Assembly: GCF_003019035.1 (NCBI RefSeq)
Contig: NZ_CP027448.1
From: Escherichia coli
GTDB taxonomy: Bacteria > Pseudomonadota > Gammaproteobacteria > Enterobacterales > Enterobacteriaceae
Direction: 5' to 3' (one strand)
Length of the DNA: 64,000 bases
Shown in pieces: positions 11,095 through 61,594 of this stretch. Made by a program: the position numbers and the translations under genes. The notes below the pieces were generated by a model that was not told where the DNA came from, searched no databases, and worked only from the letters and a program-made list of their open reading frames with translations. The stretch's first letter is position 1; each line of letters begins with the position of its first letter.

Positions 11095-11154
11095 ATCCCG
11101 GCATCAATCCCACAATGGATATACACAAGACATATCCACATAAGGAGGCAAATA

Positions 11155-11382: not shown

Positions 11383-11780
11383 TGCTGAAGTTTATGCTCA
11401 ATACCAACATCTGCATTTTTACGATAAAGAACAAACCCGCCAGTGTCAGGGAACGTTTTAACCTGAACCAGGGGAGAATGTGCATCAGTTCGGTCACTCT
11501 GATGGAGCTGATATATGGTGCAGAAAAAAGCCAGATGCCTGAACGTAATCTCGCTGTGATCGAGGGATTTGTTTCCCGCATTGACGTTCTGGATTACGAC
11601 GCTGCTGCTGCCACACACACCGGCCAGATAAGAGCAGAACTTGCCCGTCAGGGACGCCCTGTCGGGCCATTTGATCAAATGATCGCAGGTCATGCCCGCA
11701 GTCGGGGACTGATTATTGTGACTAATAACACCCGGGAATTTGAACGTGTGGGCGGCCTGAGAATTGAAGACTGGAGTTGA
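11382..11780 (+). CDS. vapC: VapC/VagD PIN-domain toxin
   Basis: 132-aa ORF with PIN-like pattern (MLNTNICIF..., ...LIIVTNNTREFERV), start overlaps the antitoxin stop. Confidence 0.8.
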   Translation: MLKFMLNTNICIFTIKNKPASVRERFNLNQGRMCISSVTLMELIYGAEKSQMPERNLAVIEGFVSRIDVLDYDAAAATHTGQIRAELARQGRPVGPFDQMIAGHARSRGLIIVTNNTREFERVGGLRIEDWS

Positions 11781-11788
11781 CCTGTTCA

Positions 11789-13942
11789 TCAGAAATCATC
11801 TCCCGGCTCAACATCCTCCCCGCGCTCCCGGTGCACATTAATGTTCACCTCTTCACGACGCTGCATCTGCTGCTGGATGTCCGGATGATTTTCCTGTTGC
11901 CATGCCTCATAAGCGGCCATATCCACCACTTCACCGGATTCACTGATCCCGGGTGGCAGTTGCTGTTCCATCTCTTCTTCCGGTTTCATTTTCAGCTCCT
12001 GCTCGATCCCCCCTACCGGAACATTCACACCTGAATCTGACTTCTTATCGTTGATGGCAGGAGACACCGGCTGTTGCGGCTGTTCAGCCTGAGTCACGTC
12101 TTCTCCGGAAACAACCTCCGGGACATCCGGTTCGAAGAGGCTGGCCATCTGACGACCTTCTGCTTCCCTTGCGGCAAGTACGGCACTCAGACGGTTCTCC
12201 ATTTCCGGGTTGATGTCACGCGGAATAAACTCCGGAGCGACCTTCGGTCGTGTCTGATATTTCAGAGAGAGTTTTACTGCCGGATACGGTCCGGGCAGGG
12301 TGACATAACAGGTCAGATCCGGCAGAGACTGAATGTCGGAATAACTGACCAGCGTCTGGCGCTCCATATCCTTACCGGTCGATACCCCGTCACGTACCGG
12401 ATCAGCACCGTAGGAATACTGCTCGCTGGCTTTCAGGTGCTCTTTCTCACCAATTTCACCGGCAGCGAACTCTGCAATCTTATGGCTGGGAGAACGGAAA
12501 AAGGCACGGGTGTTCATGACGTCAAACAGCGAGGCAGCCGCTTTCTCACCGTAGATATCTTCCAGCTGGGCATAGGACTGGATACCAAACACATAACAGC
12601 CACCGAACTTACGGGCTTCCGGCAGGATCTCCACCAGGTCCGGCAGTTTGTGTAACGTGGGTAACTCATCACAGAAAAACCACACACGACGGTTACGGTT
12701 TTCTCCCATTGCCAGCAGACCACGAATGGCAATGGACAGCCACATGGAGATCACCGGCTTCAGGGAGGCATGGGTGTCGGCATTCGACGAAATAAACAGC
12801 CAGCCGTTTTTCTGATCTTCCCGGACACCACGCATCCAGTCACGGATGGTAAAAGACTCACCGTTATGCTCAATCCCCTGCAGGTAACGGATGGCTTTCA
12901 CGTAGTTGGTCAGCACAGCACGGATGGAAATCGCCGTTTTCTCAATTTTCTCTTCCACCAGGTTGGCCGCCGGTGAATTACGCAGGAAGGTACGCAGTTT
13001 TTCGATTTTGATGGAAAGCAGTGTGTCCACCAGTTTGCTGTAGCTGCGGTTGGGGTCATTACGCATCAGGTACGCCGCTTCCGCAAAAATGGTACGTCCT
13101 GACCCCTGCCAGAACGGGTCCTCTTTTGTGCCCATCGGGATCAGCGTGTTCGCGGTATTATCAAAATCCGGCTGTGTCAGGCACTCCTTCCACAAATCCC
13201 AGGCGGCACAGCGGGCATCCAGCGGATTCAGGATTTTATCGATGGAGGGATCATAGTAACTTTTAACAAATTCCCCTGAACGGTCATAAATCACCACCAT
13301 ATCTCCACGCTGACGGGCGTAGTTGGCCAGACGACGGATAACTTCCGACTTACCGGCCCCGACCGTGCCGTGCAGACAGAAGTTCTGGATTTCGGAATCC
13401 CGGATAATCGGCAGGTCGCCAATCCGTATATCGGAGTCCTTGCCGTCTTTTTTCAGCATCCGGGCAACGTCTTTCGGATTGTCTGTCAGCTGACGACCAC
13501 CTGTGACTTCATTTTCGCTCTGTTGTTTACCCTGACGCCCCAGAATCCAGGAGACAACAAAGAAGGTAATCAGGCAAATAACCAGTGCCACAACTGTGGC
13601 CAGAACGAATGCGGACCATAGCTGCTCTCCGCACCAGATCATATATTTATCATGCAGTACCTGAGCAGCATTCATCCGGAAGGTTTTGCCGTAATACTGG
13701 ATCTCATATACCGGCTGGGACTTGATTAAATCCCGCATGCCTTCCAGCGTGGTACACCACCAGTAAATACAGCCGTTCACAAACGTCTGCCAGCTTATTT
13801 TTACCCATAAAACCAGACCAACGAGTATCCAGAAAAAAATAAACAGGCAGTAAAGCATGATATTGGCGATCTGGCTGAACATGCGGATACGCATGGACGC
13901 AATCTGACCGCCCTGGGTCATATCCTTTGCGTTAAAACTCAT
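11789..13942 (-). CDS. traD: TraD type IV coupling protein
   Basis: 717-aa ORF with N-terminal TM segments, Walker A GTVGAGKS and Q/P-rich C-terminus; matches F TraD and gene order. Confidence 0.95.
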
Positions 13943-14193
13943 GATGATATTCCGAAGAAAAAAGTCAGTCGGACTGATTATTAATGATGAAAAGATTAAT
14001 AACCGTTAAATTCCGGCTTCGCCGGCAACACTTCACGGTCGCACAAAGAATTTGCACAACCGCTCAGTGTTTTCATATTTATTTCGGAAACGCCGGGGAG
14101 AAATAAAATTTATTTTATTTCTTTCCGGGGTTGGACAACGAGCAAAGCGAGGCGTCAGTCAGGAGGCCGGTCAGACCAGCCTCCGGAAGATAA

Positions 14194-14925
14194 TCAGAGA
14201 ATATTTGCGATTGATTTGGCCAGCTGGTCTTCGAGAACAGGCTTCGCCTCTTCAAATTTCAGGTTAACCTTGTTCGCACTGGAGACCACACGGGTCTGAT
14301 ATTTATGCTGGTTACCTGTTTCAGTACTGGTCTGAATTTTCGCACCTGAAGTGCCCTGACGCAGGGCGGCAACATTATCTGTTGTCACCGTTGTCTTAGT
14401 ACGCTCTGCAATCTGCACATCCGTGATCATGGTATAGTTCACATCTTCCACCATCGCATCTGCAGCCATACCCACCAGACCAGCAGCAAGGCCCACACCG
14501 AGTGTGGCACCGGCAGAATTGGAATTATATCCGGTAATACCGGCACCTAACGCTGCACCAACAGCTGCGCCTTCATAACCACGGTTCAGCCATCCCTGAG
14601 ACTCCCGCAGATCCATCTTATCGGCCTTCAGCACATTCGCCTGAATCCAGTAGTAGGCTTTATCCGGAGAAGTCACCACCTGATACCCTTTTGCTTTCAC
14701 AGCATCAGCAATTTTGCCCTGCAGCCCACTCATGTCTTTATCAGACGTGTTTTTGATCTGCAGAAATACCGTGCGTTCGCTGGCGGGTTCAAGCCAGATG
14801 GTCTCACTCATCTGGGTCTTCACCTCAAGGTTACGCTTCTTGATTGCTGTGCTCATCGCACCACACCCTGAAAGGGCCAGAGTGGAACTGACCAGTGCAA
14901 CCATCATCAATTTTTTTGTTTTCAT
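14194..14925 (-). CDS. traT: TraT surface exclusion lipoprotein
   Basis: 243-aa [50 protein letters not shown]..., matching F TraT. Confidence 0.95.
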
Positions 14926-14938
14926 CCAAAATATCCTT

Positions 14939-15448
14939 TTAACTAACAGACTCTTTTTTGAACAGCCCTATTACTGAGGCTATAGCTGAGAGATTATAAC
15001 GATTTATGTCTATAGCATAAATAAAGAAAAAGATTATAAACAAAGCAATTAATAAAAACTCATATAAGAGTGTATGGGCAAATGAAACCATTGAAAAAGC
15101 AATCAAAAATGACAAGATATAAGTTTTGTTCTTATCATACATAAAAGATATAACTTTCGACTCATCTCTGAATTTTTCAGGGATAGCAAGATACAACATC
15201 ATTCCATTAGTAATGGCAACAAAAAGGATAAAACCCATTACGCCACTAAAACATATATCAAATCCGGCATCTCGGATATCAATTTTATCTGCCAGCAAAC
15301 GAAGAAATGTTGGCCATAATAAAACCCATAAAAACACATACCCCCCTGGCTTTATGACCTGTAATAATGGCGGGATATTAACCCCGTCTACAGAGAGTAC
15401 ATCCTTTAGTTTCTGTGTCTCCATTTTTATATCATAGTGAGTGATCAT
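14939..15448 (-). CDS. traS: TraS entry exclusion protein
   Basis: Hydrophobic 169-aa ORF between traG and traT, the conserved position of traS. Confidence 0.65.
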
Positions 15449-35784: not shown

Positions 35785-36471
35785 TTATTTAACACCATAA
35801 AATTCACGAATTATACTTAATAGCGAATCTATTTCTCCTTTATATATACATGACACTCTGAATAAATCAAAGTGTTCAAAAAACTCTTTTATTTTCCGTT
35901 TAACTGGTTTAATTCGATCCTCAGATGCTCTGTCTGTAATACCCAATTCTCTGGCAATTGTTGCGTGACCAACACCCAGCATATAAAAAGAGAAAACAAC
36001 CAATGTTCCTGGAGAAAGATCATTCCATATCGTTAATTGACCAGAAGTATTTGTATTACTTACACTCTGATTTAACGCAAAAAATGGATAATCAGGAAAC
36101 GGATTAATTTGCCATAAAACAACAGATTCGTCATTATAAAAAGAAACATTCTCCATCCTTATCTGATAGATTTCGCCATGAAAATTAAAACGACGACAAA
36201 ATGCAGAGCCATGTCCAAGAGCCTGGCATTCCAGTTCAAGTGATGAAAGAAAAATTTCAACCTGCAGACGTATATAACTCTCTCCGGATAAAGGTTTATC
36301 TTCTCTGGAAAAGAGTTCAATAAAAGCCCCATTGGCATAAAGGATTTTCCGGTTTTTGTTACGGACACAAACCGGAACGGGAGAATTTCTGTAGATATTC
36401 TGAACGTTAAGGATGTATTTATTTACAGATTGACTGTTTAGTGGCCTTTCTCTACGATCCAGCGCACACAT
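35785..36471 (-). CDS. traJ: TraJ transfer-operon transcriptional activator
   Basis: ORF contains [38 protein letters not shown]..., which I recognise as an R100-type TraJ allele; GGAGG Shine-Dalgarno before the ATG at 36471. Confidence 0.8.
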
Positions 36472-36540
36472 AGGAACCTCCAGTAAGGATTCTATGGACA
36501 GTCGATGCAGGGAGTTACAGCTCCCTGCATCGGCGATTTT
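36466..36540 (+). ncRNA. finP: FinP antisense RNA
   Basis: Plus-strand sequence antisense to the traJ RBS and start, with stem-loop gatgcagggag-ttacag-ctccctgcatc followed by ggcgatttt; ends approximate. Confidence 0.55.
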
Positions 36541-36660
36541 CAGTTTCAATTTTTAACGTGGTATTAACCACATAATTAATATACTAATTATCTGACGTAT
36601 TGTCATCTTTTTGAATCATAAAAATTCTTATATTTGAACCAACTCAAACTTCATTTTCAT

Positions 36661-37344: not shown

Positions 37345-37400
37345 AAACTTGTTTTTGCGTGGGGTGTGGTGCTTTTGGTGGTGAGAATCACCAACCTGTT
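37345..37400 (+). other. oriT: oriT nic region (F-type relaxase site)
   Basis: tttgcgtggggtgt|ggtgcttttggtggtgag matches the F-family nic motif as I remember it, with the adjacent inverted repeat ggtggtga/tcaccaacc; lies between traM and gene X. Confidence 0.8.
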
Positions 37401-37458: not shown

Positions 37459-37968
37459 ATGAAAAAATGGATGTTAGCCATCTGCTTGATGTTTATAAAT
37501 GAGATCTGCCATGCCACTGATTGCTTTGATCTTGCAGGCTGGGATTACAAAATAGATCCTGATTTACTGAGAGCAATATCATGGAAAGAATCCCGTTACC
37601 GGGTTAATGCCATCGGTATTAATCCGGTAACGGGATATGGCAGCGGACTGATGCAGGTAGATTCCCAGCATTTTAACGAACTGGCCCGCTACGGAATTAA
37701 GCCAGAACATCTGACAACAGATCCCTGCATGAACATTTATACCGGTGCTTATTATCTGGCAATAGCATTTAAAAAATGGGGCGTCACCTGGGAGGCCGTT
37801 GGTGCATACAATGCAGGATTCAGGAAATCCGAACGCCAGAACCAGAGACGTCTTGCCTACGCATCAGAGGTTTACCGGATTTATACCGGGATAAAAAGCA
37901 GTAAAGGTATCCGGCTTCCGGCCACGAAGAAATCACTTCCGGAAATTAACAGCGTGCAGAACAATTAA
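37459..37968 (+). CDS. Gene X / Orf169 lytic transglycosylase
   Basis: ORF contains [57 protein letters not shown]..., matching F orf169; start set at the internal Met, track ORF starts at 37366. Confidence 0.9.
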
Positions 37969-38220
37969 TCTTACAGATATTGTCAGATACCGGTTATGCC
38001 GCAAAAGCGGCATGGAAGGCCACACACAAAAATATCATATGAGTGACAATACTGACTGGCCGAAGCCCCGCGAAGAGGTAACCCATCTTATATATACCCG
38101 GTAACTGCGCAGCCTCCTGCCAGACCATTTTTCGCGGGCACAATATTTACAGACAACCGGAAATCCGGTCGATGAAATTGAGGTATATCAGACGACACAG
38201 CAATGCCGAAAAATGATAAT

Positions 38221-39514: not shown

Positions 39515-40142
39515 TTTCAGCCCCCATCATCTTTTGAGTTTCGGGAGCCGCGGTTTTGACGTTTTGCGGGGACCTGCCTTTTGTTCCCTCCGGTATTCAC
39601 CATCACCTTTTTGAGAACCTTCGCCGCAAGGGGCATCACTGCCACGGACGGAAACGACTGTCCGGGGGCAGACCGCAAAAGTTTTTGCCTGCTTTTGAGC
39701 AAAAAGTTTTGCGGGATGTACATTTCACCCCTGGACTGGCGGAGACGGTTGTGGCTGTATCAGCCCCCGGCGACAGGGGCTTAAACAGGTGAATGGCACC
39801 GGACAGAACAACGGGCAGGGACCCGCCGCAACGACGTGAAGCGCGGTTTGCGAAACGGCGTTGCCCCTTACATCCCGGCGGCCTTTTGCCGGGATGCCGG
39901 GAGCGCAGGCCACGGCGCGACAGAGGCGGCGCGACCGGAACGGTCGCTGCAAGCCCGGGGTTTTCACGCATCGGACCGTAGCGACAGCCCGAAACCGCGC
40001 CAGCGGGTTCGGCGGAGACTGGCAGGTGCGCCAGCAGCTGCCTGTCGGAGTCGGGCCTGACGACCGGATGCCGCCAAGCAGCCGGGAGCCGAAGGTGCGC
40101 CCGGCAGATAGGACAACACTGCAGTAGTCAGAATCAGAGCAG
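39515..40142 (-). repeat. Frpo/ssi-like structured repeat, copy 1
   Basis: About 620-bp GC-rich block shared with 44936..45565 and 48265..48880, each directly upstream of a minus-strand gene set. Confidence 0.7.
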
Positions 40143-44079: not shown

Positions 44080-45565
<1,486 letters not shown>

Positions 45566-45667
45566 CAGGAAAAAGAAGAACAGTAGCAGTAGCAGTAGCA
45601 GGAACAACAACATCAGTAACAGACAAATGACAGGCATGAAGAAACAGAAGCCCCCATCAGAACGTCC

Positions 45668-45700
45668 GCGTAATGAAAGGGGCGGCGCGTGAGCGCGGCC
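45668..45700. terminator. GC-rich hairpin downstream of the methyltransferase gene
   Basis: gaaaggggcggcgcgtgagcgcggcccctttc inverted repeat. Confidence 0.4.
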
Positions 45701-45777
45701 CCTTTCAGCGCCACCGGCGCGCGGTCTTTTCCCGGCGCGGGCAGACGGGCATTTATCCTCCCGCCTGCCCGGCGTCT

Positions 45778-46341
45778 TCAGGCACGCAGACGAATAATCA
45801 TCGTCGGGACATCGGTATAAGCAAACGTGCCGCGCGGCAGCTCCTCGCGGACGTCAGAAAACGGTAACAGCTTCTCCTGCTGGCGTGGTCCGTTGAGACA
45901 GACGGCGACCAGCACGCCACCCGGACGCAACAGGGAAAAGGCCCGCAGGATATGCCGGATATCCTGCCCGTGGCTGAACGGCGGATTCATGATAACCCGG
46001 CTGTAATACTGCGCCGGCTGCCATTCCATGAAGTCGCCACACTGAACCCTGACACCGTTAAAATTTTCCCGCAGATACCGGACCAGCCCGCTGTTGATTT
46101 CCACCGCATCACACATGGCCCCCGGCGCGGTATCCCGAATCGCCCGCAGTATGGCCCCGGTGCCGGCAGAGGGTTCCAGAATGTGATCACGGTTGCTGAT
46201 CTCCGCCAGCATCACCAGGCGATCACAGACCGGGGCAGGAGTCACAAAAAGCTGAGATTCAGCCCGGATTTCAGCAACCGGCGCGGCGTTATCCAGCCTT
46301 GCGCGCATCAGCCGGATACGTTCTCTTAACTGACTGTGCAT
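45778..46341 (-). CDS. SAM-dependent methyltransferase (NPPF motif)
   Basis: 187-aa ORF with motif I-like EPSAGTGAI and motif IV NPPF. Confidence 0.75.
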   Translation of the reverse strand: MHSQLRERIRLMRARLDNAAPVAEIRAESQLFVTPAPVCDRLVMLAEISNRDHILEPSAGTGAILRAIRDTAPGAMCDAVEINSGLVRYLRENFNGVRVQCGDFMEWQPAQYYSRVIMNPPFSHGQDIRHILRAFSLLRPGGVLVAVCLNGPRQQEKLLPFSDVREELPRGTFAYTDVPTMIIRLRA

Positions 46342-48264: not shown

Positions 48265-48880
48265 ATCACCCGTTGAGTTTCGGGAGCCGCGGTTTTGACG
48301 TTTCGCGGGAACCTGCTGCTGTATTCCCTGTGGTATGAACTTCACCCGTTTGAGAACCTTCGCCGCAAGGGGCATCACTGCCACGGCCTGACGCACCTGT
48401 CCTGGGCAGAACGCAAAATTTTTTACCGGGTTTGGGGTAAAAAATTTTGTGGGCTGTTCATTTACCCTGGACAGTCAGTGCGGCAGGTTGTGGCTGTATC
48501 AGCCCCCGGCGACAGGGACTCATACGGGTGTGTGGCACCCGGCAGGCAATGAGCAGGGACCCGCCGCAACGACGGAGAGCGCGTGCGCGAAACGGCGTTG
48601 CCCCTTACATCCCGGCGGCCTTTTGCCGGGATGCCAGGAGCGCAGGCCACGGCGCGACAGAGGCGGCGCGACCGGAACGGTCGCTGCAAGCCAGGGGGTT
48701 TCACGCATCGGACCGTAGCGGCAGCCCGAAACCGCGCCAGCGGGTTCGGCGGAGACTGGCAGGTGCGCCAGCAGCTGCCTGTCGGAGTCGGGCCTGACGA
48801 CCGGATGCCGCCAGGCAGCCGGGAGCCGAAGGTGCGCCCGGCAGACAGAACAACACTGCAGTAGTCAGAATCAGAGCAGC
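48265..48880 (-). repeat. Frpo/ssi-like structured repeat, copy 3
   Basis: Third copy of the repeat; 5' end slightly diverged. Confidence 0.7.
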
Positions 48881-50155: not shown

Positions 50156-50567
50156 GGGATTTCCTCCGTTGTTCACATATTCCGCGACACCGGGCGGTGC
50201 CGTGCCTCCATAAAAGCCGGGCGATAAGGCGGGGATGCACAGGGCGCAAGGGAAGCCGCAGCCTGACGCACACGGCTGACGGGAGTTGGAGGGGGAGACC
50301 GCGAAATCTGAGCGGGTGAACGACCGGAAAATCACGGCAGACGGGAAGGAGGGACCGGGTGACCGCAGCGTTCATTTTACCCTTGCATCCCCGCCAGCCC
50401 GGCTAAGATGGAGGCACGGCACAGCCCGCACACGACACGGTGGCCACATAACTGAAAACCCACAAGGCCATGCCTGCATGGCCGGGTAAAGCGGAGCCGG
50501 CGGCGACTTCCTTTGTGCTCTGTCCGGGGACCGGCAGAAAAAAAAGCGGGGATTTTCCCCGCCATCA

Positions 50568-51344
50568 TCAGCCCCTGATTTTTGCCAGGGCATCCGCCAT
50601 GCTGCGGATTTCGGCCCGGGCTTCCCGGACAACTTCCCGCAGAACACCACGGTCAAACCTCTGGCGGGGCGGTTCATCCGGTATACGCAGCACATCGCAG
50701 GCCAGCCCACTGGACAGGATATGTTCAATACAATCGCTGACCAGATACATTTCCACCGCCGAAAAACGTGCGCCCCGGTTCAGGATGGCATCGAGCACCA
50801 CGGGCAGGTTTTCGTCGTCCTCATCGAGCCAGCAGGGGTGATCGCTTTCCTTCACGACCAGGCGAAAGCGGCGCGTCTGGCGGGTCAGTAACGTCTGACC
50901 AGTGGTGGTCAGCGCCGCCCGGATACGCCGCGTATCTTCTGCCACCCGGCAACTGACACTGCGTACCGCATCGCGCACCGCCGCAAGTACAGCCCTGATT
51001 TCGTCTTCGGTCAGCCATTCACCGGCATACGGAAAAGACACCTGCGTTCCGTCTGCCGGAAGTACCGGCAGCGACTGCCACTGACTGCCGGACAGTACAA
51101 GTTCCTCCCCGGTTCCGGTCAGTTTGTGAATGGCGGAGGCCAGGAGCGGCGGCAGTACGCCGCCGTGACGGTTTATAAGTAACGTCGCCAGCTGGGGCGC
51201 ATCCAGCCGCACGTAAATGCTGATCCAACCCGGATAGTTCGGGTTTCGCTGGTCAACATCAGTCTCTTCCGGCCAGCCCTGCGCCAGCAGCAGGTCGCGG
51301 GCGTGACGACAAATCAGTGCATTCAGCGTTGTGTTTTCGTTCAT
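50568..51344 (-). CDS. Hypothetical leading-region protein (258 aa)
   Basis: Long ORF co-oriented with neighbours; no family recognised. Confidence 0.65.
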
Positions 51345-52743: not shown

Positions 52744-53126
52744 AACAACGCTCCTTCTTTCACAGAGGGCACCGGGAGGGCCCCCTGTGGTGCCCGTTCC
52801 CCGCTGCCTGTGGGCTGTTCACCGCGTCCGGTAACTGGTCAGGCCGACCGTGGAATACCGCAGCCGTCGTCTTTTTGACGGCAAGGTTATGCCGCGAAAG
52901 CGGCTTGAAGGGCGTTCATCAGAAAAGGGCGACGGGCTGGCGTACACTGTCACCGACGCCAGCCGGGAGCGGTAAAAGCGACCGTTCCGTGCCCGCCGGA
53001 CGCGGGACACTGACCACAGGCAGCGTTCCTGCCGCGCCGCGTCAGCCGGCGCAGTAAAAAGAGGAGCACGGCGACATCCTTTGTCGGAAAAGAAACGGGC
53101 GGTTGCCCGCCCGTCTCCGTCATACT

Positions 53127-54053
53127 TCATCCGCCATAATGCGCCACATTGTCGACTATCCACGCAGGTCCGGTGACCTCCGGCAGCTCATCGTCATCTG
53201 TCGGGGAAGACCATTCCTGTTCCCCCCACAGAACATCAACAAGCTCTCCACGCTCATATCGCTGCCAGCCACAGAAATTGCAGCCCTGTTCGGCATACCA
53301 GTGCTCCAGCGTGCAGCCGAAACGGCGGCTTAATTCTGCAACAACGTCGCTTTCCGGCTGACACCACGGCGTGTCAAAATCCACCTGAATGAAGTTTTCT
53401 CCCTGACGGCCGATATTCAGGTCATACCCACAAGGCCACTTCACGCCATACCGTTCCGTATACCAGTGATATGCAGAAGGAACACCGTTCAGAACACCAC
53501 CGTTAAAGCCGTTCACTTCAACATCCAGGCGGGTCGGCAGAACCGTCAGCAGGTCAAACGGCATGGTTTTTTCCGGCACTACGTTGTCACACAGACGGTT
53601 CCACCACACCGATACATCCTCGTTACTCCAGAAGCCACACCAGTCACCTCTTTTTGCGGTGAAAAGTGCGGTGATGGTATCCCTGACATCGTCCGGTAAT
53701 CCTTCCCAGCGACGCTGTCCAGTACCGCTCTGCAGCCAGAGTTCATGCAGCATCAGGCAGTTTTGCTCATCCAGCAGTACACCGTCCTGCAGATATGTCA
53801 GCCAGCGGGTGAACGCGATATTCTCCGGCGATACAACGCCACGCCCGGCAGCCGTCAGTCCGGGGCATGGTTCAAACCGCACATCTTCAGTGGTCTGCAG
53901 AAGTCCGGCACTTCCGGCCAGAAACAGCTGAATACCTTCATTTGTGGCGCGGCGATAAAGCGGTGTGACTGCGCCGCTGGCCAGTCGTTTAATCTCAGCG
54001 ATCTGTGCCGGTTCACCAGAAAAATACATACGATTCGAGCACCAGTTTGGCAT
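53127..54053 (-). CDS. Leading-region protein, DUF1281-like
   Basis: ORF with likely start MPNWCSNRMYFSG and GGAG Shine-Dalgarno; track ORF starts at 54098; family assignment from memory only. Confidence 0.6.
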   Translation of the reverse strand: MPNWCSNRMYFSGEPAQIAEIKRLASGAVTPLYRRATNEGIQLFLAGSAGLLQTTEDVRFEPCPGLTAAGRGVVSPENIAFTRWLTYLQDGVLLDEQNCLMLHELWLQSGTGQRRWEGLPDDVRDTITALFTAKRGDWCGFWSNEDVSVWWNRLCDNVVPEKTMPFDLLTVLPTRLDVEVNGFNGGVLNGVPSAYHWYTERYGVKWPCGYDLNIGRQGENFIQVDFDTPWCQPESDVVAELSRRFGCTLEHWYAEQGCNFCGWQRYERGELVDVLWGEQEWSSPTDDDELPEVTGPAWIVDNVAHYGG

Positions 54054-54375
54054 GGGAATTCTCCTCTCACATGCGGCCTCCATCAGGCCGTGCCGCACCT
54101 GTAACCGGGCGACCGCATACGAATGCAGGTGCGGCCCCGAAGCCGCAGCGCGTGGAGGAGGAACGACGAAACGTGACCGGGTGAGGAGGCCGGCGACAGC
54201 GACACACTTGCATCGGATGCAGCCCAGTTAACGTGCCGGCACGGCCTGGGTAACCAGGTATTTTGTCCACAGAACCGTGCACAAAATGCTGTGGATAAGC
54301 TGGACACAGCAGCCCACAGCAGGCATACAGCCACACCCTCAGAGAATTGAACGTTTTTTAGCCGCAACAATGACA

Positions 54376-54423
54376 TTTGACTGTATGTGGATTCAGTTAT
54401 TAGAATGCTGTATATGCATACAG
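54376..54423 (+). promoter_or_regulatory. imp promoter with LexA (SOS) box
   Basis: TTGACT (54376..54381), 18-bp spacer, TAGAAT (54400..54405), then CTGTATATGCATACAG (54408..54423), a perfect CTGT-N8-ACAG box; a half-like box CTGTATGTGGATTCAG lies at 54381..54396. Confidence 0.7.
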
Positions 54424-54446
54424 CAAAAGAAAAGAGAGATGAGAAC

Positions 54447-54695
54447 ATGATCCGCATTGAAATTCTTTTCGACCGCCAGAGCACAAAAAACCTCAAATCA
54501 GGCACACTTCAGGCGCTACAGAATGAAATCGAACAACGACTGAAACCACACTACCCGGAAATCTGGCTGCGTATAGACCAGGGCAGCGCCCCGTCTGTAT
54601 CTGTCACAGGAGCCCGCAACGACAAGGATAAAGAACGTATCCTGTCTCTGCTGGAAGAAATCTGGCAGGACGACAGCTGGCTGCCTGCAGCATGA
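54447..54695 (+). CDS. impC: ImpC (DinI-family SOS regulator)
   Basis: MIRIEILFDRQS...ILSLLEEIWQDDSWLP resembles the DinI C-terminus; first gene of an imp/umu-type operon; track ORF starts earlier at 54387. Confidence 0.75.
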   Translation: MIRIEILFDRQSTKNLKSGTLQALQNEIEQRLKPHYPEIWLRIDQGSAPSVSVTGARNDKDKERILSLLEEIWQDDSWLPAA

Positions 54696-55129
54696 GTACC
54701 GTTTATCACCGTCCGGCTGACCCTTCAGGCGATGACAGTTACGTGCGACCGTTGTTTGCCGATCGTTGCCAGGCCGGTTTTCCTTCGCCTGCCACTGATT
54801 ATGCTGAGCAGGAACTGGATCTGAACAGCTATTGCATCAGCAGACCTGCAGCCACCTTCTTTCTGCGCGCCAGCGGTGAATCGATGAACCAGGCTGACGT
54901 GCAGAATGGTGATCTGCTGGTAGTGGACAGGGCCGAAAAACCACAACACGGGGACATCGTTATCGCTGAGATCGACGGTGAGTTCACCGTCAAACGACTG
55001 CTGTTGCGCCCACGCCCGGCACTGGAGCCGGTTTCAGACAGCCCGGAGTTCCGCACACTGTATCCGGAAAACATCTGTATTTTTGGTGTTGTCACTCACG
55101 TGATACACAGGACGCGGGAGTTACGCTGA
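54692..55129 (+). CDS. impA: ImpA (UmuD-like S24 peptidase-domain protein)
   Basis: 145-aa ORF with LexA/UmuD-type Ser-Lys dyad context (ASGESM ... K) and overlap with impB start. Confidence 0.85.
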   Translation: MSTVYHRPADPSGDDSYVRPLFADRCQAGFPSPATDYAEQELDLNSYCISRPAATFFLRASGESMNQADVQNGDLLVVDRAEKPQHGDIVIAEIDGEFTVKRLLLRPRPALEPVSDSPEFRTLYPENICIFGVVTHVIHRTRELR

Positions 55130-55251
55130 TGTTTACACTGGCTGATATCAACAGTTTCTACGCCTCATGTGAAAAAGTTTTCCGCCCGGACCTTCGCAAC
55201 GAACCGGTCATCGTACTCAGCAATAACGATGGCTGTGTGATCGCACGCAGC
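55126..55251 (+). pseudogene. impB: impB (UmuC-like Y-family polymerase), 5' fragment cut by insertion
   Basis: MFTLADINSFYASCEKVFRPDLRNEPVIVLSNNDGCVIARS matches the UmuC N-terminus, then leaves homology and hits a stop at about 55284. Confidence 0.8.
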
Positions 55252-55301
55252 CCAGATTATGTGGAATTGCAAGTAACGTTGTAGTGCTGATGAGGAAAAT
55301 T

Positions 55302-57530
55302 TTATCTGACTACAATATTGATATCGTTTTCCGCAACAATCAGCATCACGGCAGGTAAACCCTCCACACGCATTTTCTGGTGTAATTTTTTGATTAAATT
55401 ATCATCTTCATTACTGGCTTTTGCGGAAAAGCCTTGTGGATGGGAGTGCCATTCGCCAACATAATCGACAACACGAGCGGTCAACTGGTGAACCCGTTCT
55501 AATGCTTCTTGTTGTCCCGCTTCTCCCCGGACAAAGGAGGCTGGAGAGGATTTACTGTCGATAGGTTCAGGGAGCACGTCAACCAGAATAATCGTTTTGT
55601 TCTTAAAATCTGTTATGCCAACAATTGCACCTCCTGTTTCATTAGGCAGTGCCTGTAAGCGGGTGTGCTGCAATTTTTGCGCTAAGCCCTGGTCATATTT
55701 AACAACCCATTCGCCAGAAATTATAGATACCACGGAATAGAGTTCAATTTCATGTGCATCCATCGCGCCTGATATTTCATCAGATACCCAGATACACAAT
55801 CGAGCATTTCCTTTGAGTGCAGTCTGGCGAAGTTGGCGTGAGAGGATACCGGCATGAACATGAATACATTCACTGGACATACGTACAGAAATATCCCGAC
55901 ATCCACCACCGACCCAACGATCGCCATAATTGTGCTGTAGGTGAGTACTTCCCCACTCACTGCTCAAAATTGCCCGATAGTATTGCCCCTCAATTGCATC
56001 AATTCGGCATTGTCTGTCTACATCCTCCATTAACATCACGCTAGACTGACCCGATGGAGTCAGAAACAGGCTAACTATTCTGGGTATATCATCTTTTAAC
56101 ACTAGAGTCCTCGGCACCTCAAAGGTGGTACTGACATCCACAACTAAGTCTGCCTCATTCATTGCCTTAGCAATATCATCATCGTCATCAAGAATACTTT
56201 TATGGATCGCCTGAGGGAGGGGCTCATGCGGATAAATAGATTTGGCAATATGCTGAATAATATGGGGTTTTGAGACTCCAATATGACAATCAAACCCAAT
56301 ATGGCGAGACAAATTATGTGGAAGAAGCCGATCTGGATCAATAAAAGTCCATGTCCCCCACCCCATTCGAATCCAAATATCAGCCAATGTACTACCAAGA
56401 GCGCCAACTCCAGCTAAAATACCTCGAAAAGCTGCACTCTCTGAATCAACAGCAGATATGTCTCTCGCATGTGTGGCCTTCATAGCCGAACGTATTTCAA
56501 CTGGTAAAAGCGGTAATTGTCGCCACTTGGTACTAATTGATCCGCCAAGAAGCCGTACGCGATGCTGTACTCCTCGCTCATTTTTTGGCGCCAGCATATC
56601 TAGTGCAGTGGCAAGTTCACCGAGTGAACTTTGCACAACATAGCCCATCACATCCGTACGTTCTGTTTCTCCGTTTCTTAGACGGGGGATCCAAAGCAGG
56701 ATAAGTAAGCCTTCTCCTTTACCAGACGTTGGGCGGATACCATCACTTGGTATTGCTTCATAAACAGCGTCAGTTAGTGGTTTTAGGAGCTCACTTCCCC
56801 ATTCATTAAGTTGTTCTTCTAATTTTCCCAGATTATCCGGGTATGTAGCCACCGTAGAAACATCGACAGGAGGAACAGCAATAGTTAATAAGCGAAATGG
56901 CTTAACGCTTGAGGTATCTTGTTCTGGTACAGCCCTTAAAATAATCGGTCGCCCCTCACTGACCATCTGGAGACTGAGCTTATTGTCAGTCGCGTGATGA
57001 TAATCGGGGTAATTGGCTGGCAAAATGAGCTGATAGGGACTCAAATAAAAAAGTTGCTCAAGTGGCTGATCTTCTCGATGTAGATGCAGTTCGGCCGATT
57101 CTCTAAGCCACCAAAAAATGCGCTCAAGGAATCTCTCGGGGGTCCAACTGCGCTCAACTGCGCTCCAGGAGGCCTCATATAGGCAAAGAATTCGTGGTGA
57201 GCCAGGTTCTCCAGCATGCTGGTGAGAAAGAACAGGGAAATCTTTCCGCAATGCATGAACCAAGATAGGTATGCTTGATTTGGGATTGACCTCAATAGCC
57301 AATCGTTCTTTACGACGAATACGGGCTTGATTACCAGAAGCCACAGTCCCATCAGCAGCATCAATGATTAGATATTCCGAGCGGTTATCATTTATTTCAG
57401 AAAATCGTAATTCTCTGACTGTGACGTAAGGATGATTCTCGCATGCTTTAAGCAGCGAAATCGTTTGTGGATAAAGGCTATCGCGCCCCGATGAATCGAG
57501 GCGCTCACCCAATTCGAAATATTCGATCAT
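55302..57530 (-). CDS. Fused E2-like / E1-like (ThiF/MoeB) / JAB-MPN peptidase protein
   Basis: 742-aa ORF: N-terminal H...C pattern (HQHAGEPGSPRILCLY, UBC-like); central Rossmann GILAGVGALGSTLADIWIRMGWGTWTFIDPDRLLPHNLSRH (E1 signature); C-terminal JAMM-like EWHSHPQGFSAKASNEDD. Confidence 0.75.
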   Translation of the reverse strand: MIEYFELGERLDSSGRDSLYPQTISLLKACENHPYVTVRELRFSEINDNRSEYLIIDAADGTVASGNQARIRRKERLAIEVNPKSSIPILVHALRKDFPVLSHQHAGEPGSPRILCLYEASWSAVERSWTPERFLERIFWWLRESAELHLHREDQPLEQLFYLSPYQLILPANYPDYHHATDNKLSLQMVSEGRPIILRAVPEQDTSSVKPFRLLTIAVPPVDVSTVATYPDNLGKLEEQLNEWGSELLKPLTDAVYEAIPSDGIRPTSGKGEGLLILLWIPRLRNGETERTDVMGYVVQSSLGELATALDMLAPKNERGVQHRVRLLGGSISTKWRQLPLLPVEIRSAMKATHARDISAVDSESAAFRGILAGVGALGSTLADIWIRMGWGTWTFIDPDRLLPHNLSRHIGFDCHIGVSKPHIIQHIAKSIYPHEPLPQAIHKSILDDDDDIAKAMNEADLVVDVSTTFEVPRTLVLKDDIPRIVSLFLTPSGQSSVMLMEDVDRQCRIDAIEGQYYRAILSSEWGSTHLQHNYGDRWVGGGCRDISVRMSSECIHVHAGILSRQLRQTALKGNARLCIWVSDEISGAMDAHEIELYSVVSIISGEWVVKYDQGLAQKLQHTRLQALPNETGGAIVGITDFKNKTIILVDVLPEPIDSKSSPASFVRGEAGQQEALERVHQLTARVVDYVGEWHSHPQGFSAKASNEDDNLIKKLHQKMRVEGLPAVMLIVAENDINIVVR

Positions 57531-58714
57531 TGGTTTGATACACCTGCCCTAGGAGCGGCGGCCGTAGCAGCACTTACCGCAGCTGAAACAGCACCAACAA
57601 TAGCGGGTATTAACTTCCCGTCTCCAGCCACTTCAAATTCAAGGAACGCTGTATCTTTAAGATCCCCCGTACAGCTAAACCAACCATCAACACTGTCCAG
57701 AATATCCTCATACTCACGCTTAGCCCGGATGCACGGTGGATCATAATCATCATCAAGTATCTGATTGCTACTCGATACAATTGTTGCCCCGGAACGAGCC
57801 TGACCTAAAGCATTACGGGCCGCATCACAAACTTCAGCATTCTCCCCCCATTGTGACCAGCTATCATAGGAAAGTGAATGCCATGAACAATGATGCGGTG
57901 TGAGGAGAAGATCATATTCTAGTGCCTCAGCATTGCTTTTGTAACGATCCCATAATCGCTCCCAGATGAGAACTTCTGCGTCTCCACCTAATAGAAAGTG
58001 CATAGGATTACGGGAATATGCAGAGGGCAGTATTTTCATGTTCATGATGATACTGGATTCGTTTTTAGAAAGAGCTTCTTCCAAATATTCATCATCTTCA
58101 TGTGGTGCGGGCGCCAGAAGCTGTGCGGAGAACACTTCTGAAATTTGCCCGTCAATTCTGGTGAATGTATCTCCAGCTTTGATAAGAATGGCACTCAGAT
58201 CATCTGTTTTGCCATTAATATCTTCACCCATGATAAGGATTCGATTACCGCTAGATGCATAACCATGTTCCCGCCAGTATTTTACTCGGCGCCGTGCTTC
58301 TGTATTAAATGCCTGAGCATCTTCGCAAAGTGTGTGACTTTTGGAACGACGCCGAAAAATCAATGGTGATGACCACAATTCTCGAATAATGATACGCTTT
58401 TCTGAACGTTTCACATCGTCATCTGGATAATCTTCAGGACGGCCCAGCCAGAAATGTTTACGCAGGCCACCGCAATGATCCTGATCGGGATGACTGAGCA
58501 TAAAAACATCAATAAAGGGACGATCTTTTTCATCATACTTCAATCTGCTACGTAATGCCGAGGCAACATCAGGTGTGTCATCATTGGGGTTATCAGCAGC
58601 AGAGCGAATATGTACATCAATCAGAATGGATGTGCCCCGGGTGTCGGCCAAACGTACCAGTGTCATATCACCGTTGCCGACTTGGAAAAAAGTAATTTTG
58701 GCTGCCATCGACAT
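57527..58714 (-). CDS. Metallo-beta-lactamase-fold protein
   Basis: 395-aa ORF with HPDQDHCGG (HxHxDH metal site); stop overlaps the downstream start (ATGA). Confidence 0.8.
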   Translation of the reverse strand: MSMAAKITFFQVGNGDMTLVRLADTRGTSILIDVHIRSAADNPNDDTPDVASALRSRLKYDEKDRPFIDVFMLSHPDQDHCGGLRKHFWLGRPEDYPDDDVKRSEKRIIIRELWSSPLIFRRRSKSHTLCEDAQAFNTEARRRVKYWREHGYASSGNRILIMGEDINGKTDDLSAILIKAGDTFTRIDGQISEVFSAQLLAPAPHEDDEYLEEALSKNESSIIMNMKILPSAYSRNPMHFLLGGDAEVLIWERLWDRYKSNAEALEYDLLLTPHHCSWHSLSYDSWSQWGENAEVCDAARNALGQARSGATIVSSSNQILDDDYDPPCIRAKREYEDILDSVDGWFSCTGDLKDTAFLEFEVAGDGKLIPAIVGAVSAAVSAATAAAPRAGVSNQ

Positions 58715-58767
58715 CTCCTTTAGGGATACGAAAGATTGAGGTTAAGAGCATCTATTGCTAAGATACA

Positions 58768-58796
58768 TCTAGTAATTATACTAGTCTAGTAATTAG
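58768..58796. promoter_or_regulatory. Direct repeats in the divergent promoter region; candidate operator
   Basis: tctagtaatta at 58768..58778 and 58785..58795, in the 128-bp gap between divergent operons. Confidence 0.35.
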
Positions 58797-58842
58797 ACGT
58801 ATATTTTGGACTTAAATTGTAAGTACAGGAAATTATTGATAA

Positions 58843-59697
58843 ATGAGTGATAAAATGGTGAGAACTGGTCATTGGAGCCAAGAAAGACGGCTTGAATTCA
58901 TCGATTTTCGCCTACTGTGGGAAGGTCGGCTTAACCGTGCAGATCTCACGACATTTTTCAGAATTTCAGTTCCGCAAGCCTCATTAGATTTGGCAAAATA
59001 TCAAGAAGTTGCGCCAAACAACATGGTGTATGATCGAACTCAGAAGGCTTACATTACGACTCCTGATTTCAAACCTGTTTTTACAAGCTTTGACAGTAAT
59101 CATTACCTGAATGAACTACTTGGGCGAGAAAATGAAATAGTGGATCCTGATGATAGTTTCATTGGGTGGGTACCCCCGGTAGCCAGCCTTCCTCTCCCTG
59201 CCAGGAAAGTACAACCTGAAATATTGATTGATTTAATTCGAGCCATGCAAAGAAAACAGGCTTTGGTTGTTGATTATCGCTCAATGACTAATGAACCAGC
59301 AATTCGTACGCTATACCCAACAGCATTTGCACATGATGGGCATCGGTGGCATGTTCGTGCTTATTGTTTTAAGTCTACAATGTTTAAAGATTTTGTTCTT
59401 GGTAGGTTTTTTAAAATCGTTGAATTTGTTTCCCCACCGACATCAATTCCACAAGATGTGGACTGGAATACATTTATTGACGTGGTAATAGGTCCAAACC
59501 CTAACTACGATATGAATAAACGGCTATCTATTGAACATGATTATCAAATGGTAAAAGGAGAAGCAAAAATCCACATACGTAAAGCGCAATTATATTATCT
59601 TAATCGTCGATTAAATTTGGATGTAAATAGCGATGGTTCAATAGATGACAAACAGCAGATCATCATGCTCAGAATAGACGAGTCTAAAACCTATTAA
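58843..59697 (+). CDS. wHTH-WYL regulator (BrxR/CapW-like)
   Basis: 284-aa ORF with N-terminal HTH-like region and WYL-like segment LVVDYRSMTNEPAIRTLYPTAFAHDGHRWHVRAYCFKSTMFKDFVLGRF. Confidence 0.65.
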   Translation: MSDKMVRTGHWSQERRLEFIDFRLLWEGRLNRADLTTFFRISVPQASLDLAKYQEVAPNNMVYDRTQKAYITTPDFKPVFTSFDSNHYLNELLGRENEIVDPDDSFIGWVPPVASLPLPARKVQPEILIDLIRAMQRKQALVVDYRSMTNEPAIRTLYPTAFAHDGHRWHVRAYCFKSTMFKDFVLGRFFKIVEFVSPPTSIPQDVDWNTFIDVVIGPNPNYDMNKRLSIEHDYQMVKGEAKIHIRKAQLYYLNRRLNLDVNSDGSIDDKQQIIMLRIDESKTY

Positions 59698-59709
59698 GGG
59701 AATATTTAT

Positions 59710-60228
59710 ATGAATGCGAATGATGTTAACAAACGGAATAAAGAATGGATGATTGTAATCATTATTATCTATCTTTTTATTTTGTTATGTATAGCAACAT
59801 ACGCTATTGGGGCTATGTCTCTAGGTTGGTTACCAACACCTTACGCACCATTAAGGGTGCCACTGATGTGCGGAGCAATTGCCTATATAGGTGGTTGTTT
59901 ATATTGTTTTCGTGCAATTTACCTCAATAAATGTATTAGAAAACAATGGGATCCAGATTGGCATGTATGGTATTTCATTCGCCCACTGACCAGTACAATC
60001 GCAGGTGCTATCAGTTATTTATTCCTTAAGGCGGGGTTGTTAGTTTTGGAGTCTAGTTCCAATGTAGGAGCTAGTGAAATGGGTTTCTTTGCGCTGGCAT
60101 TTATTGCTGGTTTTAACGTCGATAAATTTGTCGCAAAAATCGAGGAAGTTGCAAAGGCTGTCTGGGGTATTGAAAAAACTCGAAGCTCGACTAATAATGA
60201 TGCGAAAAATTCGGAAAAAAAAGAATAG
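59710..60228 (+). CDS. Small multi-pass membrane protein (about 4 TM helices)
   Basis: 172-aa hydrophobic ORF 13 bp downstream of the regulator gene. Confidence 0.6.
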   Translation: MNANDVNKRNKEWMIVIIIIYLFILLCIATYAIGAMSLGWLPTPYAPLRVPLMCGAIAYIGGCLYCFRAIYLNKCIRKQWDPDWHVWYFIRPLTSTIAGAISYLFLKAGLLVLESSSNVGASEMGFFALAFIAGFNVDKFVAKIEEVAKAVWGIEKTRSSTNNDAKNSEKKE

Positions 60229-60274
60229 TCTGGATGTATTTAAATTAAAATGAAATTAGTGCTGAGCTATTTTA

Positions 60275-61594
60275 TTACTTTCTCTTATTTCCTGGGGTCG
60301 CGCCCCCAGTGAGCTTATTCAAAAGTTTGTCCACTGCCTGTATATCGTTTTCTACAGCGGCTTGTTCGTCATCAGTCAAAGGGATTTCCTGCATCAGCTT
60401 GAGTAGATTCTGGCGACCTTCCAAGTATTGTGCTTCAGATGAAGATTTTGGCATATAAAATGAGCATTTTGCACATGCCATCCGATGGGGGCATTGCTCA
60501 AAAAAGTCATAAGTACAGAAACCGTGTCCAAGATCATAATAACGCCATGGCTTCCCGGATGCTACCAGCCCTTCAGCTATCGCGTCTTGATCAATGAGAA
60601 CTGAAACCATGCGGCGATTACATTCAAAGTAACCAGCTTTATCCAGTGATCCTGCCAACCTCGTCGGTGTAATTTCGACATAATGTCGGGTAGATTCAGG
60701 TGAAGAATGCCCCAACCATTTCTGTAGCTCAAAAATATCAAGTGGTTCCCTGGCGTTGTAAAGCTGACTGGCTATAGTGGCTCTTGCCCGATGGCTGGTG
60801 ATTTTACCTCTGGCATCCTGCTCAGGTATACCAGCCTTTCTGCATAGCAAAGGGATTAGCGAATTATTAATATAACTACTGTGTACCCGTTTCCCCCTGT
60901 GCATGAACAAAAAACGGACGCTTTCACCTGTTTTAGAATCTTCCTGGAGGGGGTGGGGGTTACGAACAAGTTCCCATTGTTCGATATATTCCCCGATAAT
61001 AGGGTCAACTGGCTTTGTGAATGCCGCGTAAGTCTTGCTAACGGGTACATCTATCAGACAGATACGGGATACATTATTTTCTTCTGGCTGTTGCCAGCGG
61101 ATACACCCACACTGCATACGTAGAATTTCATCACGTCTGAGGCCTCCAAATAACCAGAGAACGCTGAGTGCTCTGACCATCTCCAGTGGATAAAAATAAG
61201 GATATGCAACACAGTTTGGTAAATCCGACTCCTGCAGGTTCTGTCCGGCGTGAAGTAATTTACACCACATATCATCGGCCACAATACGAGGCTCTGGTCC
61301 AACCAGGGAAGTCAAGCTACGCGGTGCCCTGAAAACTCTTTCTGGGCTGAATCGTACAGGTATCCATCCCCATTCCTGCAAGTCATGAAAGAAAGTTCTA
61401 ATATGACCCAACATCCTGGCTCTCGCTGCAGGCATCATCATTTTGCCACGACGGTCACGATACATGCCCCCAGGGGTTGCCCATTCACCAACTTTCATTC
61501 TACAAGCGGCGGTCACCCAGACGATCGCGGTGTCCCGTGTCCAATCAGATGGTGACAGACAGGTTGGATAGCACTCAGCTAACCAGCTGACCAC
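60275..61594 (-). CDS. Tyrosine recombinase (large, with C-terminal Cys/His cluster)
   Basis: 439-aa ORF with GGLRRDE, HRARAT, LGHSSPESTRHY catalytic-type motifs and CPHRMACAKC cluster. Confidence 0.8.
   Translation of the reverse strand: MVSWLAECYPTCLSPSDWTRDTAIVWVTAACRMKVGEWATPGGMYRDRRGKMMMPAARARMLGHIRTFFHDLQEWGWIPVRFSPERVFRAPRSLTSLVGPEPRIVADDMWCKLLHAGQNLQESDLPNCVAYPYFYPLEMVRALSVLWLFGGLRRDEILRMQCGCIRWQQPEENNVSRICLIDVPVSKTYAAFTKPVDPIIGEYIEQWELVRNPHPLQEDSKTGESVRFLFMHRGKRVHSSYINNSLIPLLCRKAGIPEQDARGKITSHRARATIASQLYNAREPLDIFELQKWLGHSSPESTRHYVEITPTRLAGSLDKAGYFECNRRMVSVLIDQDAIAEGLVASGKPWRYYDLGHGFCTYDFFEQCPHRMACAKCSFYMPKSSSEAQYLEGRQNLLKLMQEIPLTDDEQAAVENDIQAVDKLLNKLTGGATPGNKRK

Follow-up and report, generated by a model that had tools for sequence, protein, structure and literature searches.

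What is the function of the non-coding gap that separates a DUF1281 gene from the promoter of the imp operon on an Escherichia coli plasmid? The gap, at 54054-54386 of the window (the whole stretch of 64,000 nucleotides analysed here), lies between the ATG of the DUF1281 gene and the imp promoter, where an earlier note made from the sequence alone had placed it. That note had seen in it multiple inverted repeats and no convincing open reading frame (ORF), and had suggested either a further single-strand promoter or a divergent regulatory region. Single-stranded DNA (ssDNA) promoters set which plasmid genes are on in the first minutes after entry, and this step limits the spread of resistance plasmids. 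Our in silico analysis supports the first suggestion: the transferred strand of the gap carries a hairpin whose homology to the class 2 family of ssDNA promoters is, from sequence comparison, nearly certain, and whose orientation and spacing to the gene are like those of class 2 elements. We favour the reading that it is a diverged, short-loop class 2 promoter homologue dedicated to the DUF1281 gene, and we lean, with slightly more reserve, towards its being an active promoter in vivo.

The window is an IncF plasmid, as Rfam matches to the traJ 5' untranslated region (UTR; 36466-36573, minus strand), FinP, CopA and sok show. The F nic motif GGGGTGTGGTGCTTT is found at 37361-37375 on the + strand (in the F-type nick sequence the nick lies between GGGGTGT and GGTGCTTT). 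Deposited F ssiE matches the + strand at 37963-38151, and deposited F ssiD (Frpo) matches it at three places, 39521-39870, 44944-45293 and 48275-48607. The + strand is where the nic motif and the ssiD and ssiE matches all lie, which identifies it as the one transferred. Judged by these matches, it is the template for the minus-strand genes from about 37 to 54 kb, the leading region. The gap is the outer end of this region, and its hairpin is the outermost one there. The sequence equivalent to the gap has sopC as its immediate neighbour in F; in the window, as in the IncI1 plasmid pESBL, that neighbour is the divergent imp operon.

Class 2 ssDNA promoters precede klcA and ardA in pESBL, and their start sites were mapped by 5' rapid amplification of cDNA ends according to the main text of Wen et al. 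(NAR 2025, PMC12672017). The class 2 element is called ssp2 (bioRxiv 10.64898/2026.01.09.698686) or 'Frpo3' (bioRxiv 10.1101/2025.04.03.647016), and a supplementary table of Samuel et al. 2024 (PMC11541004) gives the candidates Frpo'4, Frpo*1 and Frpo*3, the latter two with low certainty. Frpo'4 is 83% identical to window 50184-50517, and the ssp2 primers (bioRxiv 10.64898/2026.01.09.698686) encode residues of the adjacent ORF 50568-51344, which places ssp2 in the window. Alignment of the gap with the three candidates revealed common blocks, namely GCCGTG, CGGGCG, GAAGCCGCAGC, CGGGTGA and a 39-nt 3'-arm motif, CTTG-N12-CCCRGYTA-N3-T-N5-CACGGC. On the + strand of the window this motif occurs only in ssp2 and at 54207-54245, with 0.03 matches expected by chance. 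The element itself is present in more than 4,000 IncF/IncI plasmid records, and a plasmid BLAST meant to find distant copies was swamped by about 4,700 near-identical records; a pattern scan of species representatives, one genome per species, was used instead. The scan yielded 57 loci, mostly in Pantoea, Erwinia, Enterobacter, Klebsiella, Yersinia, Salmonella arizonae and Rahnella. Nearly all of them have a complementary GCCGTG arm 105-177 nt upstream of the 3'-arm motif, with two loop sizes, and an ORF on the opposite strand mostly begins 23-44 nt past the 5' arm.

Profile and covariance searches assigned the gap to the same family. A profile built from 18 short-type copies, none of them of E. 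coli type, gave only two significant sites on the + strand of the window, ssp2 (E 1.3e-12) and the gap (E 1.9e-12). On pESBL it gave exactly three, which lie 5' of ardA (E 1e-16), klcA (2e-16) and DUF1281 (1e-13); the third is about 98% identical to the gap. A covariance model was then built from 21 non-E. coli copies (Pantoea, Erwinia and relatives), three of which had not been selected by the motif. It gave a full-length match in the gap with 81.1 bits (E ~3e-16), the best score in the window; the opposite strand scored 24 bits and ssp2 62 bits.

The stem is also maintained by covariation, which was computed on a 20-sequence alignment. Standard pairs make up 96.7% of the cells of the consensus stem compared with 90.2% in shuffles, a value that none of 500 shuffles reached. 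Twelve pairs are changed on both sides, where 7.4 would be expected (0/500 shuffles), and only 1-4 when the partner columns are slid. Covariation is seen, among other places, at the base of the stem (UA 10, CG 8, GC 2) and at positions 4 and 5 of a putative -35 hexamer, which covary with the 5' arm (pairs 46-150 and 47-149). Furthermore, a G-T wobble within this hexamer is kept in 17 of the 20 sequences, and on the other strand it would appear as a C-A mismatch. Thus, the wobble marks the functional strand, consistent with the strand preference of the covariance model. Folding, which had been proposed as a check, gave a smaller signal. Folded as ssDNA on the + strand, the whole gap reaches -67.3 kcal/mol (z -2.9) and the core hairpin -44.8 kcal/mol (z -3.0; 2 of 200 shuffles were as good), so the gap folds better than shuffled sequence, but not dramatically. 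It is homology and covariation, not folding energy, that provide the evidence beyond chance.

The inverted repeats noticed earlier were borne out by a repeat search. The dominant one pairs 54084-54110 with 54222-54248 (27 nt, 78% complementary) and belongs to a 34-bp imperfect stem within a 165-nt hairpin (arms 54084-54127 and 54209-54248, + strand; Table). Columns 9-14 of the family alignment, in the 5' arm, are invariant and paired. The apical region is shorter than that of ssp2, and the element belongs to the short-loop subtype. The position of the gene, on the 5' side of the hairpin in the transferred strand, fixes the roles of the arms: the template is the 5' arm, and the 3' arm stands in for the non-template strand, which is read from loop to base. 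The assignment of the hexamers is our own reading from the sequence and the family register. What the family keeps on the 3' arm is C-TTG-N3, 15 nt, and TA-N3-T; the putative spacer measures 15 nt on this non-template arm and 19 nt on the template arm, with a mean of 17. In the consensus structure, columns 18-24 and 168-174 are unpaired, and the first T of the candidate -10 hexamer is always paired in the family. Counting 7 nt from this hexamer, we infer a start site near 54091, opposite +1 of the 3' arm. The predicted leader is 38 nt long, with GAGGAG 7 nt before the ATG at 54053. The 5' arm is 34 nt from the start codon; this distance is about 35-44 nt in most family members and 23-33 nt in the other copies linked to DUF1281. 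When the same promoter logic was calibrated on Frpo, no -35/-10 hexamers were recognised there by eye.

Table. Positions of the hairpin element, its predicted signals and its neighbours in the window
Feature	Position	Strand	Basis and details
5' arm, template arm	54084-54127	+	Minimum free energy fold, repeat search; starts with family-invariant GCCGTG (54087-54092)
Apical region	54128-54208	+	Conserved blocks GAAGCCGCAGC (54140-54150) and CCGGGTGAGGAGGCCGGCGA (54177-54196); alignments, nhmmer, covariance model
3' arm, non-template arm	54209-54248	+	Motif CTTG-N12-CCCRGYTA-N3-T-N5-CACGGC at 54207-54245
Putative -35 hexamer TTGCAT	54208-54213	+	Top of stem, paired with 54123-54128; TTG invariant in family
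Putative -10 hexamer TAACGT	54229-54234	+	First T paired, remainder in or next to internal loop; alignment columns 167-172
Predicted 5' UTR of DUF1281 mRNA	54054-54091	-	Hairpin geometry; Shine-Dalgarno GAGGAG is the complement of 54061-54066
DUF1281 / Api92-like gene, 308 aa	53127-54053	-	Pfam DUF1281 E 2e-49, DUF1281_C E 2.4e-15
Terminator-like hairpin GAGACGGGCGG-gcaa-CCGCCCGTTTC, then TTTTCC	53092-53117	-	Inverted repeat, 10 nt past DUF1281 stop; weak evidence
Distal conserved segment, two small hairpins including the ccacagaaccgtgcacaaaatgctgtgg repeat	54254-54336		Fold of 54254-54340 -17.7 kcal/mol, z -3.9
imp (impC/dinI-like) promoter	54377-54406	+	TTGACT-18-TAGAAT, 10/12 matches in promoter scan
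LexA-box-like sites CTGT-N8-ACAG	CTGTATGTGGATTCAG 54381-54396; CTGTATATGCATACAG 54408-54423	+	Read from sequence
Class 3 ssDNA promoter homologue, 5' of M.EcoGIX-type methylase	52744-53126	+	96% identical to pESBL segment directly 5' of M.EcoGIX
Paralogous class 2 promoter ssp2 / 'Frpo3', 5' of ArdB/KlcA gene	50191-50428	+	Fold -73 kcal/mol, z -8.0; covariance model 62 bits

The link between the hairpin and DUF1281 is conserved. Six DUF1281 homologues (42-95% amino acid identity) occur in the fetched loci, and each is preceded by such a hairpin, which stops about 30 nt short of the start codon; two of the homologues are of E. coli type and four, from Pantoea/Erwinia, are 42-50% identical to the window protein. 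Three of these six hairpins were not selected by the search pattern, and all six have TAACGT or TAAGGT as the -10 hexamer. In 61 near-full-length copies of the family, the gene past the 5' arm is always on the opposite strand; it encodes a methylase in 16, ArdA in 16, KlcA/ArdB in 9 by motif plus 5 look-alikes, and DUF1281 in 6. In Pantoea/Erwinia the order is hairpin-DUF1281, hairpin-methylase, hairpin-KlcA. The DUF1281 protein of the window also matches PDB 2IJR, 'hypothetical protein api92' (E 1.5e-51), and a search of NCBIfam with it returned no model. The gene was said to open a long minus-strand operon starting at 54053. It does start there, but it is followed by a terminator-like hairpin, whose T-run is too short for the automatic terminator scan, and then by the next promoter-type hairpin region; therefore, DUF1281 looks like a transcription unit of its own.

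Compared with the known class 2 promoters (pESBL klcA/ardA, F ssp2 and Frpo'4), the element is alike in its position on the transferred strand of the leading region, its conserved blocks and stem register, its internal loop at the -10 and its distance to the start of an anti-defence-type gene. Its apical region is about 65 nt shorter than that of ssp2 (105 nt between the arms versus about 168), its stem contains more mismatches (-44.8 versus -73 kcal/mol), and its putative -10 is TAACGT rather than the TAAGAT of class 2 promoters. It precedes DUF1281 and not klcA or ardA, its start site is predicted whereas those of pESBL klcA and ardA are mapped, and by BLAST it is only weakly detectable as class 2. 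Frpo*1 and Frpo*3, from the insect-gut metagenome OFEI01000013.1 and also found in Candidatus Erwinia dacicola (L033), share the short-loop subtype and the arm motifs with it, but they precede KlcA-like and methylase genes; the studied copy differs in its gene, in its plasmid group and in its central region. An inner hairpin, GCGGACTGAATGTCCCGC, present in almost every other short-type copy, is missing from the studied one. Class 1 promoters (Frpo / ssiD / ssi1-3; Masai and Arai 1997; Couturier et al. 2023, PMC9849209) are alike in region, strand and proposed mechanism, in which a hairpin of the entering strand mimics a duplex promoter and is turned off after double-strand conversion. Local alignment with F ssiD (Frpo) or ColIb-P9 ssi1-3 scored at background, and ssiD matches the three other places of the window and not this one, so class 1 membership was rejected.

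From this geometry the following mechanism can be proposed. During conjugation the + strand would enter the recipient with its 5' end first, from the nick at about 37368, and about 16.8 kb later the segment would arrive and fold into the 165-nt imperfect hairpin. The stem would mimic a duplex promoter, in which the 3' arm provides the -35 TTGCAT and the partly unpaired -10 TAACGT, the 5' arm serves as the template, and the internal loop would leave the -10 adenine unpaired. Host sigma-70 RNA polymerase would start near 54091 and run leftwards out of the base of the stem. It would produce a transcript with the 38-nt leader and its GAGGAG ribosome-binding site, followed by DUF1281, and would end at the terminator-like hairpin (53092-53117). 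Once the complementary strand is made, the promoter hairpin would be gone, and expression would be transient, the duplex being a poor promoter. The duplex sense strand reads CTGCAT...TACAGG, without the final T of the -10 hexamer. The lack of a good -10 in the duplex fits activity on single-stranded DNA only.

Several points weigh against an active promoter. The hairpin is much weaker than ssp2 (z -3.0 versus -8.0), lies at the weak end of the short-loop subtype (-42 to -60 kcal/mol), and in the window copy has one more mismatch in its stem, at 54226, an A in place of the G of most plasmids. Of the six positions of each hexamer only three agree with the consensus, and the non-template arm offers a spacer of just the 15 nt given above. 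In its main text, the pESBL map has six ssDNA promoters/operons, none named for DUF1281 (PMC12672017), and the main text of the F work gives four operons/promoters (bioRxiv 10.64898/2026.01.09.698686). Going by these main texts, the element appears to be absent from both maps, and with a 98%-identical copy in pESBL, induction of DUF1281 may not be strong. In F (L002 8880-9780, equivalent to window 53127-54053) a frameshift interrupts the DUF1281 gene, unlike in the window and pESBL, so the model plasmid F cannot report on the function of the protein. In addition, the homologues were partly gathered with a 3'-arm pattern that was drawn partly from the gap itself, which inflates 3'-arm similarity, a bias that touches neither the 5' arm nor the central blocks nor the covariation.

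Most of these points would equally suit a decayed, inactive class 2 relic, with DUF1281 silent or expressed in another way, and we regard this as the alternative to be taken most seriously, although it is clearly the less probable one. The weak fold, the half-matched hexamers, the published maps and the frameshift in F all speak for decay. But other short-loop copies found in front of intact methylase, KlcA and DUF1281 genes span a range of fold energies that includes this one, and the pairing is kept between the E. coli-type and the Pantoea/Erwinia copies linked to DUF1281, although the proteins are only 42-50% identical. The covariance-model score exceeds that of ssp2, which is active, and DUF1281 is intact in the window and in pESBL. 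As for the maps, they were drawn by BLAST against known elements together with a folding-energy cut-off. We repeated the hairpin search of Wen et al. (300-nt windows, ViennaRNA DNA parameters) with its cut-off of -75 kcal/mol, a heuristic and not a definition of a promoter. The class 1 copies passed, as did ssp2 (-78) and 52744-53126 (-88), and the gap failed (-64); such a cut-off would miss this copy regardless of activity. BLAST of the published candidates against the gap gave a best E of 4e-5 (Frpo*1, 17.5-kb subject), and the published censuses used a threshold of 1e-6. Missing both the cut-off and the threshold, the region escaped both mapping methods.

A mainly structural role is unlikely. 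In that case the hairpin would be a barrier to complementary-strand synthesis, or a source of RNA primers for it, at the distal border of the leading region, and expression would be secondary; a roadblock is known for F ssp2 only, and priming for Frpo. The text of the F study reports that the ssp2 stem stalls conversion as a roadblock, that ssp3 has no roadblock activity, and that F loci upstream of ssp2 convert later than the distance from oriT predicts (bioRxiv 10.64898/2026.01.09.698686). The element is homologous to ssp2 and, as the outermost hairpin of the leading region, is the first to be met by synthesis coming from the maintenance side. Its stem is nevertheless far less stable than that of ssp2, ssp3, which is an ssDNA promoter as well, does not stall conversion, and the tight, conserved coupling to the start codon of the gene favours a promoter.

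An ordinary duplex regulatory region, either a divergent promoter/operator shared with imp or a vegetative promoter of DUF1281, is very improbable. The idea of a divergent region applies only to the right-hand ~50 bp, which hold the LexA-regulated imp promoter, and not to the remainder of the gap: the imp promoter with its LexA boxes (54377-54423) adjoins the hairpin element but is separate from it, and positions from ~54337 on belong to it. A sigma-70 scan of the duplex upstream of DUF1281 found no minus-strand consensus (16-18 nt spacer), only the + strand imp promoter. It also marked one + strand terminator-like site, 54244-54259, which is the base of the hairpin. The small palindromes of 54254-54336 and the repeated CACAGCAG motifs could bind a protein. 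This distal segment contains the repeat ccacagaaccgtgcacaaaatgctgtgg (54269-54296) that had been quoted as an example; the repeat exists, but as a minor one with 6-bp arms, and it is not the functional hairpin. In F and pESBL the segment is conserved as far as ~54334 along with the DUF1281 module, and many plasmid matches share a single end point at query position 283 (~85% of the query). The distal segment is the end of the conserved leading-region module. A search for compensatory changes in it between the window, F and pESBL found differences that weaken the small stems, and Pantoea copies have a different sequence in its place. The conserved unit of F ends at ~54334 next to sopC and not next to imp, and therefore the element travels with DUF1281, not with imp. 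The strand-specific covariance-model scores and the conserved G-T pairs also point to a single-strand structure rather than a duplex one.

A hidden small protein-coding gene or structured RNA has next to no probability: although mechanical ORFs of 88-140 aa overlap the gap and 'hypothetical proteins' appear in some database annotations of similar GC-rich gaps, Pfam matched none of the four scanned ORFs that overlap the gap or the second gap described below, the 1-, 2- and 14-nt indels seen among homologues leave no frame unbroken, so that no conserved coding frame emerged from the comparison, Rfam 15 gave no match in the gap at the gathering score or at E <=1, and RefSeq annotates nothing at the pESBL equivalent.

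A second gap, at 52744-53126, had been described as similar. It exists, but pairwise alignment with the hairpin region scored at background, and we rejected the similarity; its sequence is unrelated and it belongs to another promoter class. Its position and description match the class 3 promoter (M.EcoGIX; ssp3 in F), as judged by sequence. It has the strongest ssDNA fold of the leading region outside class 1, and at -88 kcal/mol per 300 nt it is much stronger than the studied region (-64). The two neighbours are alike in orientation and proposed function, and differ entirely in hairpin sequence. Rfam gave a far-sub-threshold 'Erse' match in this second gap only. A 'hypothetical protein' annotated across the class 3 hairpin by the Prokaryotic Genome Annotation Pipeline (window 52819-53163, minus strand; pESBL 54394-54705; F 53784-54089) is arginine-rich, matches no family, lies in GC-rich structured DNA and is probably spurious. 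The centre of the gap (52885-52913) holds GGTTATGCCGCGAAAGCGGCTTGAAGGGC, a sequence with 86% identity to the small hairpin at the core of F ssiE, close to oriT (37992-38020). In Pantoea/Erwinia the methylase is preceded by a class 2-like hairpin and not by class 3. At both its beginning (...CCCCTGTGGTGCCCGT...) and its end (GGAGC...GCGACATCCTT) the class 3 region resembles these methylase-leader hairpins (52744-52800 compared with L012 and L033), although the interior hairpin differs. Class 3 may thus have arisen when a class 2 ancestor had its interior replaced.

A transferred-strand motif, GGAGCG-N-AGCGACATCCTTA, recurs at a fixed distance past many class 2-like hairpins in Pantoea, Erwinia and Rahnella, 70-110 nt 3' of the hairpins in L012, L019, L033, L037, L040 and L053. 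The window has one exact copy, at 53063-53081 (site 53061-53087), between the DUF1281 terminator and the class 3 hairpin, and a look-alike lies inside the loop of the studied hairpin (54183-54213). Some pattern matches of the species scan were not full hairpins. L013, L016 and L047 have no credible 5' arm and were discarded as chance matches. In L009, L010 and L048 unrelated DNA runs up to the 3' arm, and the three loci have in common the junction between ...ACAGTTG and CTTG...; these hairpins are truncated, perhaps through an insertion or a recombination event at the -35. L015 (Alicyclobacillus 'plasmid'), L029 (Raphidiopsis) and L050 (Aeromicrobium) were set aside as cloning-vector contamination. 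They share a vector junction between ...GAGCTCGTCGAC and AGCGACACACTTGCATCGGATGCAGCCCGGTTAACG..., which looks like an F-derived bacterial artificial chromosome or fosmid fragment starting at a SalI site in the hairpin loop. At 54192-54197 the window reads GGCGAC and F reads GTCGAC, and such vectors would hold the 3' arm only.

Two other places in the window stood out. At 45660-45959, just upstream of the second Frpo copy, the ssDNA fold reaches -80 kcal/mol (300 nt) and passes the -75 cut-off; the segment has GC-rich terminator-like repeats inside and is outside the known promoter classes. At 55129-58714 (L001 locus 9249-15361 is window ~55302-61414), impB is cut to 51 codons and is followed by genes for a 742-aa ThiF/E1-like protein with a JAB-like C-terminal end, a 395-aa metallohydrolase, a WYL protein and an integrase. 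These genes resemble a defence-type island that has entered the imp operon.

The profile and the covariance model can be used to find further class 2 copies, and whether the DUF1281 hairpin is active is a question that can be answered from existing transconjugant RNA-seq data. If it is active, DUF1281, a widespread protein, would join the short list of zygotically induced genes, and class 2 would be a general cassette placed before ArdA, KlcA/ArdB, ssDNA methylase and DUF1281 across Enterobacterales. A joint reading, which we consider doubtful, goes further: the hairpin would be a working fifth F-type and seventh IncI1 ssDNA promoter that forms the outer border of the zygotic region, gives an early burst of DUF1281 and slows complementary-strand synthesis. 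Were this joint reading true, the late conversion of leading-region loci upstream of ssp2, relative to their distance from oriT, would be explained, and the early burst would mark DUF1281 as an establishment or anti-defence factor.

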